Source: Shigella phage CM8
DNA length: 64,000 nucleotides
Sequence record: MK962750
Direction: 5' to 3' (one strand)
The notes below the pieces were generated by a model. The model made no database searches. It saw nothing but the letters and a program-made list of their open reading frames with translations, and was not told where the DNA came from. Made by a program: the position numbers and the translations under genes. This document shows positions 2,497 to 60,720 of the stretch, piece by piece (position 1 is the first letter of the stretch; each line of letters begins with the position of its first letter).

Positions 2497-2970
2497 TTAT
2501 TTGATTTGTTTAGCAGACCAAATGCGATCTTTAATAATTTTTTGGATGTCTTCAACATACTCAAGAGAGTGAGCATGTGGATTATCTTTGAAACTATAAG
2601 CACGAGCTAGTTTTTGGCCTTCAGTTTTGATTACTAAAAGCTCTTTAAGGATAGCTTCATATTTGGAGATAATTCCTTTAACAATATTTTTTTCTTGTGC
2701 AGCTTTAGGATCTGCTTTAGGAGCAGGTTTACCCGAAGCCTTTGCAAAAGCAGCGCCAGTAGCAACTAAACTTTTCCAGGCCATACTAACTGCATTTCCC
2801 GTAAATCCTTCCGCTTTCATGTCGCGTGCGAACTGGAATCGCGATTCATCAGAAGCATCTTTATAAGAATATTTACCCGCTGCAATGGCTGCTTTTGCGA
2901 CAGCTTGAATTTCGGTGCTAGATGCTTCATTTAACACCGCTTCATTTAAAAATTGAGTATATGATTTCAT
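2497..2970 (-). CDS. internal protein-like (capsid targeting sequence at N-terminus; IPII/IPIII-like)
   Basis: N-terminus MKSYTQFLNEAVLNEA matches the T4 internal-protein capsid targeting sequence consensus (MKTYQEFIxEA) with L-x-E sites of the type cut by the gp21 prohead protease. Confidence 0.65.
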   Translation of the reverse strand: MKSYTQFLNEAVLNEASSTEIQAVAKAAIAAGKYSYKDASDESRFQFARDMKAEGFTGNAVSMAWKSLVATGAAFAKASGKPAPKADPKAAQEKNIVKGIISKYEAILKELLVIKTEGQKLARAYSFKDNPHAHSLEYVEDIQKIIKDRIWSAKQIK

Positions 2971-3020
2971 CTTATTTCCTGTTTTAATTCGTGGTTTTAA
3001 TATACTTATTTATACTAAAA

Positions 3021-3044
3021 AGCCCCAACCTTTCGGTCGGGGCT
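3021..3044 (-). terminator. hairpin terminator (second copy of the 2466 element)
   Basis: Identical sequence aaaaagccccaacctttcggtcggggctaag. Confidence 0.55.
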
Positions 3045-3353
3045 AAGCCTTGCGGCAACCTTGTCGGGGTTCCACCTGCTAAGGCAAGTGTTTGTACGAA
3101 ACGCCGGGATTCGAACCCGGTTATTAAGCAGTTGACGCTACTCAATATTTTTAAAAGGCCATATCTCGACCATATCCGAACGTTCCGTCAAAAACGCTAC
3201 TCGGCTTACGGCAAAGATATTTCCTCGAATCGATAATTCGGTGCGCCGTTTCTGCTGTGATGTAAGAGGGCATCAATAAACGCAAAGATTATTAACGCAA
3301 TTCCTTACTCAGGGAACATCAGTCCGACGACTTACCGGTAGCGACCCGGTTTC

Positions 3354-3704
3354 TTAATATTCTTTTAAAGCATCAATCTGTTTACGGCGTTCACGCCATA
3401 AATCAATTGCTTCATACGCGGATTCAACATTTCGAATTGGACGGCATTTATATAAAGATTTGTGATTTTGATATTGCGTAGATAACGGAATTTTATCTAA
3501 AAGGTCTTTACGTTCAAAGTATTCGTAACCATCTAAGCCAAATGAACGATTTTTGAGAAATTGCCAATGACCAAATTCGTTTTGAATATAAATATAATCC
3601 GCATGTTGATAAAGTAAATTAATTTCACGAAATGAGATATGTTTTTCATATTCATTGAAGTAAAATGTTAAATCATGAACTACTAAATAAACATTACCTT
3701 TCAT
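3354..3704 (-). CDS. hypothetical protein (116 aa)
   Basis: ATG-initiated ORF immediately downstream of tRNA-Arg on the minus strand; no motif recognised. Confidence 0.55.
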   Translation of the reverse strand: MKGNVYLVVHDLTFYFNEYEKHISFREINLLYQHADYIYIQNEFGHWQFLKNRSFGLDGYEYFERKDLLDKIPLSTQYQNHKSLYKCRPIRNVESAYEAIDLWRERRKQIDALKEY

Positions 3705-3722
3705 ATTTTCCTCACTTATAAT

Positions 3723-3798
3723 TGGTCGAGGCAGTAGGGATCGAACCTACGACCTAGGACTTAGAAGGTCCTTGCTCTTCCTTCTGAGCTATGCCCCG
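3723..3798 (-). tRNA. tRNA-Arg (anticodon UCU)
   Basis: 76 nt folded by hand: 7-bp acceptor stem CGGGGCA/UGCCUCG, anticodon arm AGGAC-CUUCUAA-GUCCU, T-arm GUAGG-UUCGAUC-CCUAC, encoded CCA. Confidence 0.88.
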
Positions 3799-3802
3799 TA
3801 AT

Positions 3803-3900
3803 TGGGGTGACCGATGGGAGTCGAACCACCCGAGTCGCAATGACAATGGATTTACAGTCCACACCGCTACCTCTACGGGATAACTCCCCTTAATTCTTAA
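3803..3900 (-). ncRNA. unassigned stable-RNA candidate between tRNA-Ile and tRNA-Arg (tRNA-like, not a canonical cloverleaf)
   Basis: About 100 nt with no ORF, GGGGAG 5' end, TTCGA T-loop-like motif and CCCCA 3' end, but I could not fold a canonical T-stem or acceptor stem. T4 carries two stable RNAs of unknown function in its tRNA region (recalled). Confidence 0.3.
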
Positions 3901-3902
3901 TT

Positions 3903-3977
3903 TGGTGGCCCTGGGTGGAATTGAACCACCATCTGGCGATTATGAGTCGCTTGCTTGAACCTTCCAGCTACAGGGCC
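3903..3977 (-). tRNA. tRNA with anticodon CAU (Ile by analogy to T4, or Met)
   Basis: 75 nt: acceptor GGCCCUG/CAGGGCC, anticodon loop CUCAUAA, T-arm GGUGG-UUCAAUU-CCACC, encoded CCA. Confidence 0.8.
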
Positions 3978-3978
3978 T

Positions 3979-4054
3979 TGGTGCTGATTGACGGAATCGA
4001 ACCGCCGACCTTCTCATTACAAGTGAGTTGCTCTACCTACTGAGCTAAATCAGC
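3979..4054 (-). tRNA. tRNA-Thr (anticodon UGU)
   Basis: 76 nt: acceptor GCUGAUU/AAUCAGC, D-arm GCUC-AGUAGGUA-GAGC, anticodon loop CUUGUAA, T-arm GGCGG-UUCGAUU-CCGUC, CCA encoded. Confidence 0.9.
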
Positions 4055-4059
4055 AAAAC

Positions 4060-4149
4060 TGGCGGAGGCGATAGGATTTGAACCTATGAGTCGCCGGAGC
4101 GACTGCCGGTTTTCAAGACCGGTGCATTAAACCACTCTGCCACGCCTCC
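4060..4149 (-). tRNA. tRNA-Ser (anticodon UGA), long variable arm
   Basis: 90 nt: acceptor GGAGGCG/CGCCUCC, anticodon arm CCGGU-CUUGAAA-ACCGG, long variable arm, T-arm AUAGG-UUCAAAU-CCUAU, CCA encoded. Confidence 0.9.
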
Positions 4150-4155
4150 AAATAT

Positions 4156-4806
4156 TTATATATTGTTAATTTGATTTAGAATTCTTTTTGCTTGAGTATG
4201 ACTTACGCCAATATGCTTAGCATATTTAGACAATTCGCCACGTTTAGAAAAATCATATAATTTAGAAATTTCTATTCTTCTTTTTCTTTCATCCGCAGAA
4301 ACTTTTGCTTCGTTTGCTTTTGCTATTTTACGTTTAGCTTCTTGAGAATGAGTTTTACCAGCAAAGCCATTCTTCATTAATCCATTTGAAGACCATCCTT
4401 TTAATTTTCCGTTAGAATGTGCCTTTTTAACACCCAATGAAATTAATTCGCGTTGCTGATCTGTCATAGGATAATTATTTATATGATCCCATCCACCTTC
4501 ACCTCCAAGTTTTAAATTATACACATCTGGTCTATTTAAAAACTCTTCTGTGACAATATTTTTCTCGGCTTCAAGCATAGATTCTTTATCGTCAAAATAC
4601 TCTAATATTTCTTTAGAAAAATTTTCTATACCATATTTATCTTGGGCTCTTTTTAATAATTTACCAGAACCCATATATCCATCATCTAAATTTTCGGTAG
4701 AATGCACACCAATATAAATTTTATTATTAATTTTATTTGTTATTTTATAAAGATAAAAATGCATATCAGTCCCTAATAAAGAACTGAGCGTCTCACGACG
4801 AGTCAT
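4156..4806 (-). CDS. segB: GIY-YIG homing endonuclease (SegB-like) inside the tRNA cluster
   Basis: FYLYKITNKINNKIYIGV...YMGSGK is a GIY-YIG motif; 216 aa; sits between tRNA-Gly and tRNA-Ser, as recalled for T4 segB. Confidence 0.75.
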   Translation of the reverse strand: MTRRETLSSLLGTDMHFYLYKITNKINNKIYIGVHSTENLDDGYMGSGKLLKRAQDKYGIENFSKEILEYFDDKESMLEAEKNIVTEEFLNRPDVYNLKLGGEGGWDHINNYPMTDQQRELISLGVKKAHSNGKLKGWSSNGLMKNGFAGKTHSQEAKRKIAKANEAKVSADERKRRIEISKLYDFSKRGELSKYAKHIGVSHTQAKRILNQINNI

Positions 4807-55945: not shown

Positions 55946-55948
55946 CAA

Positions 55949-55968
55949 TGGGGACCTTTCGGTCCCCA
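55949..55968. terminator. bidirectional hairpin terminator between gene 54 and the minus-strand alt block
   Basis: tggggacc-tttc-ggtcccca followed by T-run. Confidence 0.7.
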
Positions 55969-55973
55969 TATTT

Positions 55974-56264
55974 TTATTTACGGAATGAAATGAAAGCAGA
56001 AACTGAAGCAACTAAACTGTCTTCAATATAAACTTCAATTTTTACCGGAGCTTCTGACTCAAATTTACCTGTTACTACACCTTGGAAAATACTTTCAGTC
56101 TGTTCTGGTTTTGAAAAATTTTCAGAAGGAAAAATTCCGAACTTTTTATCTGTTCCAAAAATTTTAATAAATTCATCGTAAACTGCTTCATTAAAAGCAT
56201 TATCAGCAGGAATAACGCCTTCAACGACGAGCTCTTGGCCTAAAAAGCGTAAAGAAGATTTCAT
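55974..56264 (-). CDS. hypothetical protein (96 aa), alt.-3-like by position
   Basis: Small ORF between gp54 and the Alt paralogs. Confidence 0.55.
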   Translation of the reverse strand: MKSSLRFLGQELVVEGVIPADNAFNEAVYDEFIKIFGTDKKFGIFPSENFSKPEQTESIFQGVVTGKFESEAPVKIEVYIEDSLVASVSAFISFRK

Positions 56265-56324: not shown

Positions 56325-58382
56325 CTACATTTTGAACTTTTTAGACATTCCGTTGATGTTAACCAAAGAAGCTAATATTTGAGAAACTTCGTTTTCCTCT
56401 TCTTTTGATTCTTCTACAAGGAATTGATTAAATCCAGCCATTGGACGAACTTCACCAGTTTCCATTAAATGGTCGCCATCATATACTGATTCTTCTAATT
56501 GGTCAGAAGGAGGAACGATTGTACCTTCGATTAGATACTTGTTATAAGCAGTTTCTTTCATAAAGTACGTACTTACTTTATTAATCTTTAGTAAAATTCC
56601 GCGCGGTAGAATAACTTCAGCTTCTGATGGAAATCCTGATAAATGACCCGGAACGATAACTTTGATTCGCTCAGCTCCTTTAATTACCATACCCACGCTA
56701 GTTTCAGCATCTTCATTAGCATATGTAGAATGACTACCCATATGCATCAAATCTTCTGCATCAACGGAACCTTCTCCTTCACCAGAAAATACTGCGCCGG
56801 AATCATCTAGAGCCATATAGTTTTTACCATGCTCACCGAAGATATTTGGTTTAAGCGATGTCGATACGAAGTTCTTGAAATAGAACATTTTGTTTTCAAT
56901 GTTATGACGCAAAGTTTTAAAGGTAACTTCTTGCCCACGATAAAGAGTAGTTCCTGGAGGAAGAACTGAACCTTTAGCAAATGCAGAATCCAACGTCTCG
57001 ATGTGTTTAATAGCTCGTTCCATATATTCTTCACGGGTAGAATCAGGTTTACCTAAAAGGAACGAGTTCATTTCAACATATGAATCTGCACAATAATCTT
57101 CAATTACATCAGACTCAGCCTGAGTCAGTCCTTTTGGAGTTACTTCAGTGCTTGCGTATTCATATGCCTGAGCAGCAGATTCATTAATCAATTTATAAAT
57201 GCCATTCATGACAAATTGAATAATAGCTGTCTTTTCATCTGGTGTAGCTTTAGAACCTTTAACTAAATCATTGATAATTTTCTTAATAACATCAAAGCTA
57301 TTAGAAATATTAATGTCAGCAAGATCGCTTAAAATTTTATCAGTTTTATAATCAAAAAATTCTTTATTCTTTAAATATTCTTGAGAACCTTGATATGTTA
57401 TATCGCTCTGCAGCTTGATAGATGGATCGCGTAAACGTGCATGGGCTAATGCAATATGATTTCGGAAACTTTCTAGTTCATAATCGTTAGATTTAAAACG
57501 AGAAGCACTCCTCATACCACCGATAGCTCCTTTGCTGAAGTTTGAACCAATCTGAATAACGCCAGAGTTCATTGGTCCTTCTGCTTTATATACCGGAACT
57601 TTAGATTCAAACTCTTGATATTTCTTGGCAGCGAAGCTATCACCCTGGAGTGAAGCATCAACAGTAGAATATTGAGCTTGTGCTGCTAATCGACGACTAA
57701 TTTTAGTTTTCTGAATAACAGCTTGATCAGTGCGCTTATCATTTTCTAAAGCAATAGAAGCAGCAACAGCGACAGCTTTAGGAACAGCATTACCTGTTTT
57801 AACGTCTACATAAACATCACCAACCTTTGATTCAACTTTTGTGAATAACTCAGTTGAAATAGGAGGTACACCTGGAATGTCTTCTAAATTGGCATTTTTA
57901 CGGTAAACCATAATATATGCATACTTTTTATCATAGTCCCAGATTTCCTTTAAAAGAACATATCGACCTGCTCCTTTAGTACGTACTAAACGGTCAGCAA
58001 TAACTTGCATTTGACGAGCTGCGCCATTTGTTTTACTTTTTAGTACGCGGAATAGGCATGCGTCAATTTTATACTGTTTCATTGTTTGAAGAGCAGTATC
58101 AAAAACAGCATTAATGACGCCAATTGGATTTCCACCCAAGTTTCTAAGCTTGACTAACGATAATTTCTCGTTGACACCTATCATTACGATATGCATCATT
58201 TTATCGCCTGGTTTAACGTTTTTATTCGTATCACCACCAGAGGTGTATGTACAAAATCTAAATCCAGGAAGCACGCTTTCTTCGCCGGCTTGAATAGCAA
58301 AAATTTGTGGTATTTTATGCTTAGGATTTAAGTTAACAACCGGCGCCGAAGCGCCGTCAAATAATTCTGTAATAAGTTCCAT
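56325..58382 (-). CDS. Alt-like ADP-ribosyltransferase, paralog A (685 aa)
   Basis: N-terminal region shared with paralog B (MELITELFD..., KIDAC..RQ.QVIADRL, GRYVLLKE.WDYDKKYAY); C-terminal R-S-E type motifs (YRGQEV, FVSTSLKP, EAEVILPRG). Confidence 0.8.
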   Translation of the reverse strand: MELITELFDGASAPVVNLNPKHKIPQIFAIQAGEESVLPGFRFCTYTSGGDTNKNVKPGDKMMHIVMIGVNEKLSLVKLRNLGGNPIGVINAVFDTALQTMKQYKIDACLFRVLKSKTNGAARQMQVIADRLVRTKGAGRYVLLKEIWDYDKKYAYIMVYRKNANLEDIPGVPPISTELFTKVESKVGDVYVDVKTGNAVPKAVAVAASIALENDKRTDQAVIQKTKISRRLAAQAQYSTVDASLQGDSFAAKKYQEFESKVPVYKAEGPMNSGVIQIGSNFSKGAIGGMRSASRFKSNDYELESFRNHIALAHARLRDPSIKLQSDITYQGSQEYLKNKEFFDYKTDKILSDLADINISNSFDVIKKIINDLVKGSKATPDEKTAIIQFVMNGIYKLINESAAQAYEYASTEVTPKGLTQAESDVIEDYCADSYVEMNSFLLGKPDSTREEYMERAIKHIETLDSAFAKGSVLPPGTTLYRGQEVTFKTLRHNIENKMFYFKNFVSTSLKPNIFGEHGKNYMALDDSGAVFSGEGEGSVDAEDLMHMGSHSTYANEDAETSVGMVIKGAERIKVIVPGHLSGFPSEAEVILPRGILLKINKVSTYFMKETAYNKYLIEGTIVPPSDQLEESVYDGDHLMETGEVRPMAGFNQFLVEESKEEENEVSQILASLVNINGMSKKFKM

Positions 58383-58385
58383 GAT

Positions 58386-60482
58386 TTATCCTTGAACGAA
58401 CTTGTAAGGCATGTTTGTAATATCTATGCAAGACGCAATAATTCCAAGAGATGATTCTACTTTCTGTTTAACATTTGATGAAACAAATGATGCAAAGTCA
58501 ACTCTGTCTTCTACTTCAATATCACCTGTCATTGCAACTACTTCGCCGGTTTCCATTAGATGGTCACCGTCATAAATTACCGATTCGGTGAGTTCTTCTG
58601 TGGTCATAACTTCAGCTTGAATGAGTTTTGTATTATTAGATGTTGTTCCGTCATTATTAGAAGCATCAGTTATTTTATTAACTTTAACCATCAATCCGCG
58701 CGGTAGAATAACTTCAGCTTCTGTTGCTATTCCGAGACTTCCTGGATATACAACATTAACTTTATGAGCTCCATCAATTGCCCATCCTATTTGAACTTTA
58801 ACGTATTCAGGATTTTCTTTATACGCTCTTATTTCGTTTGGATTAATAGTTATTCCTTCTTCATTTTTATCAACTGTTAATTCATTGCGAGCTTCTGGTT
58901 CTAAAAGACCAATACCAGCATGTGTAATTCCAAAACGTCCAAAAATGATAGGAGTTAAAGAAGTAGATACAAAATTTCTGAAATAGAACACTTTATTTTT
59001 AACTAGTGCTTCGTATATAGGAGCAGTCATACTTTGAGCACGATAAACTGTAATGCCTTCTGGTATACGGTCACCATTTTCAAAAGCTGAATCTAAATTA
59101 TTTATAGCAGATTCAATTTCTTTTTCACTCATTATATCATATCGTTCTGGATTGTAACGACCTAAAAGAAGATTATTGATGTCTGTATATCCTGAACCAC
59201 AATACTCTCTAATGCCGCGCTTTTGTGATGGAGTATATTTAGAACCATCACGGGCAATAGTAATATCAATCATTGGACCTGCACCAATTCCGGAAAAGCT
59301 ATAAATCATTCGTTTGAGGAATTTAGTTTTTGCTGCATTCCAGGCATTTTTAGTTATTTCTCCCCAGACTTCATCTGGCTGCCCTTTACGAGTTTTATTA
59401 TGTTTATCAAGCCAATTATCTTTATATTCTTCAAATAATTGATTAACAGCTGCTGCGTATTTCTCTAAACATTTTATTGAAGTAGTTGGTTCATTTTTAA
59501 TCGCATTAAGAATTACATCTTTAATTTTTTCTGAAACTTCACCGACTTGACTCATTGGAAAGAATTTATAATCATAGTGAAGTTCATCTGCCGTTCCTTC
59601 AGCAATAATTTTTGCTGCCTTAGTTTTAGAAGCTAATGAATTAATTCCAATTTTCATTTCTTCTGCTTCGGGAATTAAAGGTGCAGTAGCTGGTTTATTA
59701 AAATTAGCTGCTGTAGATTCATACTTCTGGAATAATTCACTTTCAAATCTAGAAGATTCCAATGACTGACTTTGTGCAATTGCTCTACGGGAAATTTTAA
59801 CTTTAACGATTACGGCTTGGTCAGAACGTTTATCATTTTCTTGTGCAATTGATGCTGCAATTGCCTCATTTTTAGTTACTTGGGCTCCAGTATCTTTATT
59901 GATATAAACATCACCGACTTTCGATTCAACTTTAGTAAAGAGCTCGGTACTAATTTCCGGAACTCCTGGAATGTCTTCTAGTGATACATTTTTGCGATGT
60001 ATAAGAATATATGCATACTTTTTATCATAATCCCAGAGTTCCTTAAGAAGGACGTATCTGCCACCTGAACGACTACGGATAAGTCTATCAGCAATAACTT
60101 GAATTTGTCGAGCTTGGCCAGCAGTTTTAGACTTAAGAATACGAAGCATACAAGCATCAATTTTATACTGACGCATTGTTTGCATTGCAACAGTAAAAAC
60201 TGAATTGATATAATTAATTGGGCTTGGACCAAGACCTTTTAATTTAGCAATTGAACCTTTAGCAGTTAATGTAAAAGGAACAATATGCATCATTTTATCG
60301 CCCATTTTTAAATCGCGATTAGTATCACCTCCAGATGTATAGGTACATAAACGAAAGCCTGGTTGTTCAATTGCATCATCAACGTGAACTGAAAAAATTT
60401 GTGGTATTTTCTTCTTTGGATTTAAGTTTGTAATCGGAAGAGTAGTATCTTCGTCAAATAATTCTGTAATGAGTTCCATCAT
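58386..60482 (-). CDS. alt: Alt-like ADP-ribosyltransferase, paralog B (698 aa); positional alt candidate
   Basis: Same architecture; catalytic motifs VYRAQS, FVSTSLTP, EAEVILPRG; minus-strand TATAAATA about 20 nt upstream; second ATG at 60479 is an alternative start. Confidence 0.8.
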   Translation of the reverse strand: MMELITELFDEDTTLPITNLNPKKKIPQIFSVHVDDAIEQPGFRLCTYTSGGDTNRDLKMGDKMMHIVPFTLTAKGSIAKLKGLGPSPINYINSVFTVAMQTMRQYKIDACMLRILKSKTAGQARQIQVIADRLIRSRSGGRYVLLKELWDYDKKYAYILIHRKNVSLEDIPGVPEISTELFTKVESKVGDVYINKDTGAQVTKNEAIAASIAQENDKRSDQAVIVKVKISRRAIAQSQSLESSRFESELFQKYESTAANFNKPATAPLIPEAEEMKIGINSLASKTKAAKIIAEGTADELHYDYKFFPMSQVGEVSEKIKDVILNAIKNEPTTSIKCLEKYAAAVNQLFEEYKDNWLDKHNKTRKGQPDEVWGEITKNAWNAAKTKFLKRMIYSFSGIGAGPMIDITIARDGSKYTPSQKRGIREYCGSGYTDINNLLLGRYNPERYDIMSEKEIESAINNLDSAFENGDRIPEGITVYRAQSMTAPIYEALVKNKVFYFRNFVSTSLTPIIFGRFGITHAGIGLLEPEARNELTVDKNEEGITINPNEIRAYKENPEYVKVQIGWAIDGAHKVNVVYPGSLGIATEAEVILPRGLMVKVNKITDASNNDGTTSNNTKLIQAEVMTTEELTESVIYDGDHLMETGEVVAMTGDIEVEDRVDFASFVSSNVKQKVESSLGIIASCIDITNMPYKFVQG

Positions 60483-60502
60483 ATCCTCTCTAGTGTTTAT
60501 TC

Positions 60503-60510
60503 TATTTATA
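60503..60510 (-). promoter_or_regulatory. late promoter TATAAATA upstream of Alt paralog B
   Basis: Reverse-strand consensus about 20 nt before the Alt-B start; consistent with Alt being made late and packaged. Confidence 0.6.
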
Positions 60511-60516
60511 AAATTA

Positions 60517-60534
60517 AAGGCCCGAAGGCCTTTA
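60517..60534 (-). terminator. hairpin downstream of the 62-aa gene, upstream of Alt-B
   Basis: aaaggcc-cgaa-ggccttt. Confidence 0.5.
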
Positions 60535-60720
60535 ATAATCTATTGGTAATAGAGTACGATATATTTCAAACTTTGGACCTTTTTCATAAGCATCAAAAGT
60601 TTCTGTGAATTTATTATAAGCATATGCATCTATAAATTCAATCATGATTTGCGATACAGAAGTAGAAACATCTCCACCTTCTTTTTGAGCCACGACAATT
60701 GTTTCTAAGTAAGCTTTCAT
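60532..60720 (-). CDS. small hypothetical protein (62 aa)
   Basis: Start overlaps the ligase stop (ATGA); hairpin terminator downstream. Confidence 0.5.
   Translation of the reverse strand: MKAYLETIVVAQKEGGDVSTSVSQIMIEFIDAYAYNKFTETFDAYEKGPKFEIYRTLLPIDY

Follow-up and report, generated by a model that had tools for sequence, protein, structure and literature searches.

What does a phage do with two full-length genes for an injected enzyme? The alt gene product of bacteriophage T4 (gpAlt, NP_049811) is a packaged and injected arginine mono-ADP-ribosyltransferase, and ADP-ribosylation of Arg265 of one RNA polymerase alpha subunit is a trait of the T4 Alt family. Shigella phage CM8 (MK962750), of which a stretch of 64,000 nucleotides (the window) was analysed, encodes two adjacent Alt-like proteins on the minus strand, here called AltA and AltB. 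In our preferred reading, which we hold with somewhat more confidence than doubt, CM8 is a T2/RB32-type Tequatrovirus phage that makes two functional, head-packaged mono-ADP-ribosyltransferases, and the target sets of the two enzymes probably overlap only in part because their cores belong to two old lineages.

Catalytic and processing motifs of two full-length Alt paralogues

A preliminary description of this DNA had reported two adjacent Alt-like paralogues of 685 and 698 aa. Both open reading frames (ORFs) are present and match the Alt family profile phrog_802 over their full length (AltB residues 1-685, E 2.7e-256; AltA residues 1-697, E 1.9e-273). Both proteins are also collinear with T4 Alt from end to end and contain the ADP-ribosyltransferase (ART) domain PF03496 (E 5.8e-20 in AltB and 1.4e-37 in AltA), which is precomputed, together with PF26846 (Tevenvirinae_ADPRT), for the AltB cluster. 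NCBIfam contains no family for AltA, AltB or the products of the neighbouring genes alt.1 and alt.-3. AltA and AltB share 41% identity (BLASTP, E 3e-162), and compared window by window along the alignment they are 52-82% identical over residues 1-235, 5-20% over residues 240-410, 28-48% over residues 413-510, 5-15% over residues 511-560 and about 30-45% from residue 563 to the end. The conserved N-terminal half of the preliminary description is thus recovered over residues 1-235, but conservation extends beyond it to the C-terminal ~60 residues. All peptide motifs that had been quoted were recovered.

The R-S-E type catalytic motifs ascribed to both paralogues are kept at the codon level, with R482 in AltB and R480 in AltA, an S-T-S motif in each, and E587-A-E589 in each. 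Neither paralogue lacks the catalytic glutamate, as both E587 and E589 are intact in AltA and AltB. In both paralogues these residues lie within an ART fold. R, S-T-S and E-x-E are invariant in 29 family members, down to ~42% identity, and among AltB-like (B-type) lineages as little as 43% identical all catalytic residues are likewise invariant. In a HMMER alignment to solved toxins, AltA R480 falls on the catalytic arginine of CDTa and iota toxin and its TEAE motif on their ExE. A phmmer search with AltB against PDB sequences gave no match and a B-type profile was required to align the solved toxins; with this profile, LYRG (R482) and YPEEAE align with VYRG and YPGQYE of C3cer. The E-x-E motif suggests arginine specificity for both AltA and AltB. 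AlphaFold2 (AF2) models, with predicted local distance difference test (pLDDT) scores of 76.2 for AltB and 70.5 for AltA, consist of an N-terminal alpha/beta domain (~1-215), a long helical region, the ART domain and a poorly ordered C-terminus. A search of 1.84 billion representatives with the helical region of AltB (236-415) returned zero matches, with no homologue outside the family and no functional clue. The longest exact DNA match between altA and altB is a 29-nt tract, CAGAAGCTGAAGTTATTCTACCGCGCGGA (56598-56626 and 58695-58723, minus strand), which codes for (S/T)EAEVILPRG at the catalytic ExE and is conspicuous given the saturated synonymous sites elsewhere between the two genes.

T4 Alt is present in ~40 copies per head (PMC9026906) and is cut by gp21 after ITE-6 and LTE-619 to give a mature protein of 68.2 kDa, as determined by mass spectrometry (PMC5694885). 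The mass that we computed from T4 Alt with these two sites equals the published value. AltA and AltB contain gp21-type sequence motifs at both ends, from which mature proteins of 69.2 kDa (AltB, residues 7-631) and 70.0 kDa (AltA, cut after ITE-6 and LTE-632) are predicted. The C-terminal propeptide that would be removed contains a YDGDHLMETGE block, which is invariant across the whole Alt family. As both proteins keep gp21 processing motifs, packaging and processing of both AltA and AltB is plausible.

Both genes are under strong purifying selection. The 685-codon frame of altB is intact in six phages, with ratios of nonsynonymous to synonymous substitution rates (dN/dS) of 0.016-0.058 at synonymous divergences (dS) of up to 0.28, and altA has dN/dS values of 0.020-0.075. 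The intact frames and low ratios indicate that altB is maintained by selection where it is present.

Locus states and mosaic history of the Alt family

The tandem pair is already known and annotated in hundreds of genomes. AltB is found at at least 80% identity in ~400 phage records (tblastn), including T2 and RB32, and the whole tandem region in at least 360. RefSeq names both genes 'Alt-like RNA polymerase ADP-ribosyltransferase' in T2, RB32 (as alt and alt.-2), RB27, slur02 and others. Duplications of alt, including a full-length one in phage 44RR, were listed by Nolan et al. (2006; PMC1524935). Over a 4.9-kb stretch, CM8 shows 98.6% identity with Shigella phage JK23 and ~97% with T2, RB32, RB27 and RB33.

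T4 itself retains a trace of the second gene. Its alt.-1 and alt.-2 correspond to the first ~345 nt of altB, to which they are ~96% identical in DNA; the rest was removed by the loss of one nucleotide from an A-run together with a 1,699-bp deletion that runs between copies of the direct repeat CTAAAAAGT. This deletion junction is common to 91 records, and four in five (~80%) of the Tequatrovirus records with altB sequence have full-length altB. With alt.-1 and alt.-2 as a deletion remnant of altB and the junction shared by these records, T4 represents the derived, minority state at the alt locus, and the 'duplication of the first part of alt' noted in the T4 record is better read as the remnant of a deleted full-length paralogue. 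N-terminally truncated AltB calls also occur (P0007, P0008 and P0010, starting at M62, M158 and M271, respectively), of which P0007 (624 aa, 36 members) starts at the same ATGATG (MMHIV) as T4 alt.-2. These calls represent either recurrent A-run frameshifts or homopolymer sequencing errors.

The history of the paralogues was reconstructed from region-wise identity matrices and bootstrapped neighbour-joining (NJ) trees of the N-terminal domain (N-domain) and of the ART domain plus C-terminus. The N-domains of the A and B copies are 67% identical in Tequatrovirus and 65-67% identical in Dhakavirus, compared with 42-47% for any comparison between the two genera. For the ART domain, identities across genera are 56% for B versus B and 56-94% for A versus A, and A and B are ~36% identical. 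Accordingly, the N-domain tree groups sequences by genus (bootstrap 100% for the Dhakavirus clade and 92% for the Tequatrovirus-like clade), whereas the tree of the ART domain plus C-terminus separates an A clade (100%) from a B clade (99%). This disagreement between the two ends of the proteins indicates that the A/B split of the effector half predates the separation of Tequatrovirus and Dhakavirus and that the N-domain goes with the genome in which it resides. The downstream paralogue of Dhakavirus (JS98, JS10, MN04 and dhaeg; 707 aa) is the B-lineage orthologue, as it shares with AltB its position, the 3-nt coupling, the C-terminus ending in KFKM and an ART domain 56% identical to that of AltB (A-B 36%); its N-domain, however, resembles that of the Dhakavirus A copy (65-67%) and not that of AltB (45%). 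Recent gene conversion as the source of the N-domain similarity between AltA and AltB was considered and rejected, as dS between the two N-domains is 1.7 (saturated) and the longest shared tract, of 29 nt, lies at the ExE and outside the N-domain. The similarity is therefore old.

The core of AltA has itself been swapped between phages. T4 Alt resembles AltA in its locus between alt.1 and alt.-3, its length and domain order, the R/STS/ExE residues, the gp21 motifs at ITE-6 and LxE-~619 and the late promoter, and its N-domain and C-terminus are 96-100% identical to those of AltA. The AltA core (~235-617), in contrast, is a different allele, 33% identical to T4 Alt over the helical region and 66% identical over the ART domain. 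T4 Alt is 45% identical to AltB overall, and the helical regions of these two cannot be aligned. At the DNA level, altA and T4 alt are 95-100% identical over nt 1-690, mostly 85-100% from nt 1850 to the end and 30-82% in between, with a dS of 0.12 in the N-domain and 1.17 in the ART domain. In the comparison with ORF7 of the Dhakavirus phage PSD9, high identity is confined to the ART segment of altA (nt 1200-1850; 88-100% in most windows, dS 0.38), and its flanks are saturated. The AltA core is 94% identical to a Dhakavirus ART and only 66% identical to that of T4 Alt. The strong divergence between the catalytic motifs noted in the preliminary description is real, but it does not reflect simple drift after a local duplication, as the two old lineages are shared with Dhakavirus.

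Further arrangements of the locus were identified. Phage C2-3 pairs a T4-type altA with altB, and Shigella phage PSD9 (L007, 3100-9212) encodes three tandem Alt paralogues, unlike the pair in CM8. The first PSD9 copy (631 aa) is highly divergent, has a different C-terminus and gave no canonical FVSTS match by regular expression. ECML-134, SCS4 and Yersinia phage PST contain a single alt gene with an AltA-type start (the first ~450 nt in ECML-134 and ~300 nt in PST) and an AltB-type remainder, and two metagenomic contigs have the same hybrid arrangement. These hybrids are unequal crossovers within the N-domain. An assembly artefact was rejected because complete isolate genomes (ECML-134, SCS4 and PST) carry them and the breakpoints differ between ECML-134 and PST. 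The ECML-134/PST-type hybrids show that a viable phage can have, as its sole Alt enzyme, a B core joined to an A N-terminus. Neither the A nor the B core is indispensable on its own, but every Tequatrovirus and Dhakavirus locus that we examined encodes at least one Alt enzyme.

Expression signals, gene calls and neighbouring genes

The region is the T4 alt locus, lying between gene 30/alt.1 and alt.-3/gene 54, with gp48, gp54 and alt.-3 (DUF5498) encoded on one side and alt.1 (PF24647) and the DNA ligase gp30 on the other. Its position and late-type transcription signal are those of the T4 Alt family. The coordinates of the features are given in Table 1. The late promoter described ahead of the gene-30-side copy was found as TATAAATA, and the direct coupling of altB behind altA was confirmed, with a 3-nt gap and a separate Shine-Dalgarno (SD) sequence for altB, AAGGA, located 6 nt upstream of its ATG within the last codons of altA. 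The same 3-nt spacing was observed in all two-copy phages examined (T2, G50, REP3, UFV06, C2-3, MN04 and dhaeg), including Dhakavirus. Contrary to the preliminary description, altA is not adjacent to gene 30, as the 62-aa alt.1 ORF and a terminator hairpin, AAAGGCCTTCGGGCCTTT, intervene. The reported length of 698 aa holds for the altA ORF, which reaches position 60482, but the likely start is the second ATG, which gives 697 aa; this start is favoured by the SD spacing, the annotation of T2, G50 and REP3 and the MELITE N-terminus of T4 Alt. A second TATAAATA inside altA (59099-59106, minus strand; codons A-I-N-N), 720 nt upstream of altB, was considered as an altB-specific late promoter and rejected. 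It is present in T2, REP3 and UFV06 and absent from G50 and T4-type alleles, so that it is probably a chance match.

The neighbouring gene alt.1 (60532-60720, minus strand) shares 4 nt with the end of the ligase gene, and its product matches Pfam PF24647 'Phage blade protein' (E 7.5e-29). On the other side, alt.-3 (55974-56264, minus strand; 96 aa) has its own early-type promoter-like site at 56324-56296, directly after the altB stop codon, which reads by eye as GTTTAC, an 18-nt spacer and TATAGT and is scored by the scan tool as TTTACA-17-TATAGT. T4 Alt.-3 mutants with a C-terminal extension evade the CmdTAC defence system (PMC11618068). Genes 54 and alt.-3 are convergent, and between them (55948-55969) lies a strong bidirectional terminator hairpin (9 bp, of which 6 GC) that probably ends the late altA-altB transcript.

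Table 1. Coordinates of features of the alt locus (positions in the window, except for the hybrid genes in the last row)
Feature	Position	Strand	Remark
altA	58386..60479	-	T2-type allele; orthologue of T4 alt by position, with 72% identity to T4 Alt
altB	56325..58382	-	Second full-length Alt paralogue; RB32 'alt.-2'
SD of altA, GAGAGGA	60484-60490	-	Favours the ATG at 60479; followed by ATGATG
T4-type late promoter TATAAATA	60503..60510	-	Upstream of altA; matches the T4 late-promoter consensus
Terminator hairpin AAAGGCCTTCGGGCCTTT	60516..60533	-	After alt.1, immediately upstream of the late promoter; terminator annotated there in phage G50
altA-altB junction	58383..58393	-	SD AAGGA 58389-58393, altA stop TAA 58386-58388, 3-nt spacer, altB ATG 58382
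AltB catalytic Arg482 (LYRGQ)	56937..56939	-	Codon level; invariant in family alignments
AltB S507-T508-S509	56856..56864	-	Codon level
AltB end of ARTT loop, F584 to E587-A-E589	56616..56633	-	Aromatic at -3; aligned to C3cer AYPGQYE
AltA catalytic Arg480 (VYRAQ)	59040..59042	-	Aligned to CDTa VYRR
AltA S505-T506-S507	58959..58967	-	Codon level
AltA end of ARTT loop, I584 to E587-A-E589	58713..58730	-	Non-aromatic at -3; codon level
AltB N-terminal gp21 motif ITE (4-6)	58365..58373	-	Equivalent of T4 Alt ITE-6
AltB C-terminal gp21-type motif LEE (629-631)	56490..56498	-	Aligned with T4 Alt LTE-619
AltA N-terminal gp21 motif ITE (4-6)	60462..60470	-	Codon level
AltA C-terminal gp21 motif LTE (630-632)	58584..58592	-	Aligned with T4 Alt
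CTAAAAAGT 9-bp direct repeat, upstream copy	58035..58043	-	Left end of the T4 1,699-bp deletion, which gave alt.-2
CTAAAAAGT 9-bp direct repeat, downstream copy	56336..56344	-	Right end of the T4 deletion
A5 run in altB	58219..58223	-	A4 in T4, where the frameshift splits alt.-1/alt.-2; P0007 start M62 just downstream
Hybrid alt gene, A N-terminus and B core	L012 (ECML-134) 2501-4561; L013 (PST) 2501-4561		Also in L010 and L011

Target sets of AltA and AltB

In the preferred reading of two delivered enzymes, altA and altB would be transcribed late from TATAAATA upstream of altA, and altB would be translated by coupling or via its own SD sequence. The genus-specific N-terminal alpha/beta domain (~1-235) and the conserved C-terminal propeptide would direct incorporation into the prohead core, where the prohead protease gp21 would trim both proteins after ITE-6 and after LxE at ~631, and the mature enzymes of ~69-70 kDa would be ejected alongside the DNA. 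In the cell, AltA and AltB would each ADP-ribosylate arginines using NAD+, as expected for the E-x-E type, and the variable core, consisting of the helical region (236-410), the ART domain with its long post-STS insert and the ADP-ribosylating turn-turn (ARTT) loop, may pick the host targets. Compared with the R-S-E toxins (C3-like, Vis and iota/CDTa/VIP2), which are secreted, Alt is delivered from the phage head and has a ~410-residue N-terminal extension and a ~40-residue insert after the STS motif.

Different targets for AltA and AltB are plausible. The C3 and iota toxins have a substrate-contacting aromatic residue in the ARTT loop, three residues before the first glutamate. At this -3 position, F or Y is found in all B-types (F584 in AltB), and the B-type profile aligns its Y with that of C3cer, so that AltB and all B-types share the aromatic ARTT loop of C3-like and VIP2 toxins, whereas the A-types have I (AltA), P (T4 Alt), H (MN04_260) or Q (P0016/P0018). 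We take this contrast as a concrete hint that the two types recognise substrates differently. The only other such hints in the sequences are the helical region, which cannot be aligned, and the insert after the STS motif. The regions that vary between A and B (helical region 236-410, ~40-residue insert and ARTT loop) are those that also differ between T2-type and T4-type AltA.

Several observations weigh against two enzymes with partly separate targets. The loss of altB in T4 and other records indicates that the gene is dispensable on at least some hosts, and some phages have just an A core and others just a B core, which is equally compatible with overlapping function. In addition, the AF2 models are of only moderate confidence, with the variable insert modelled poorly, and our literature search found no report on the function, biochemistry or virion presence of AltB. 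AltA and AltB might accordingly be interchangeable, both altering RNA polymerase alpha along with one shared, broad set of proteins, with two copies kept for dosage or as alleles shuffled by recombination. Natural phages live with the A core alone (T4 and the deletion records) or the B core alone (ECML-134 and PST), and both proteins are of the arginine-type E-x-E class with the same architecture. We nevertheless consider interchangeability rather unlikely, since the core lineages were already separate before Tequatrovirus and Dhakavirus split and have remained so, full-length altB predominates among altB-bearing Tequatrovirus records with both genes under strong purifying selection, and A and B show systematic differences at the ARTT -3 residue, in the helical region and in the insert.

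It is considerably less probable that AltB is an active ART that is not packaged and modifies host or phage proteins late in the cell that produces it, or that is packaged without being ejected. Late expression and a C-terminal propeptide that is shorter than that of AltA (54 versus 65 aa) and only ~40% identical to it would fit such a role, but AltB retains the MELITE propeptide and the LxE site as well as the invariant YDGDHLMETGE block, the N-domain of AltB tracks the resident genus as that of AltA does, and in ECML-134 and PST a B core behind an AltA N-terminus forms the sole alt gene. The idea that altB is a decaying duplicate or encodes a catalytically dead structural protein, for which the T4 remnant and the frameshifted variants P0007, P0008 and P0010 could be cited, is close to refuted by the low dN/dS values and six intact frames and by the invariance of the catalytic residues across the most divergent B-type lineages.

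A broader interpretation, which we advance only tentatively, is that the Tevenvirinae alt locus is a polymorphic array of injected effectors, in which a genus-specific delivery module (N-domain and C-terminal propeptide) carries targeting/ART cassettes that can be exchanged horizontally and belong to two or more old lineages, with AltB targets distinct from those of AltA. By analogy only, such an arrangement recalls polymorphic toxins and the T-even internal proteins (IPI, IPII, IPIII and variants), with a conserved delivery part and an exchangeable effector. As at the alt locus, the content of internal proteins varies between close relatives (PMC12373910), but unlike Alt they are small, non-enzymatic inhibitors of restriction systems. 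If the array interpretation is true, AltB would target, for example, defence or toxin-antitoxin components and not RNA polymerase alpha, and the loss of altB would contribute to differences in host range or defence sensitivity between T4 and T2-type phages.

Beyond the known tandem pair, this analysis corrects how T4 alt.-1/alt.-2 are read, shows that the histories of the delivery and effector parts are incongruent, and recognises phages that naturally carry A only, B only or both. Although T4 serves as the reference for injected ADP-ribosyltransferases, it is a deletion derivative at the alt locus. The existing A-only, B-only and A+B isolates are well suited for asking whether injected ARTs are specialised in their targets, and the joining of a conserved delivery part to an exchangeable core suggests a possible route for targeting foreign enzymes into T-even heads.

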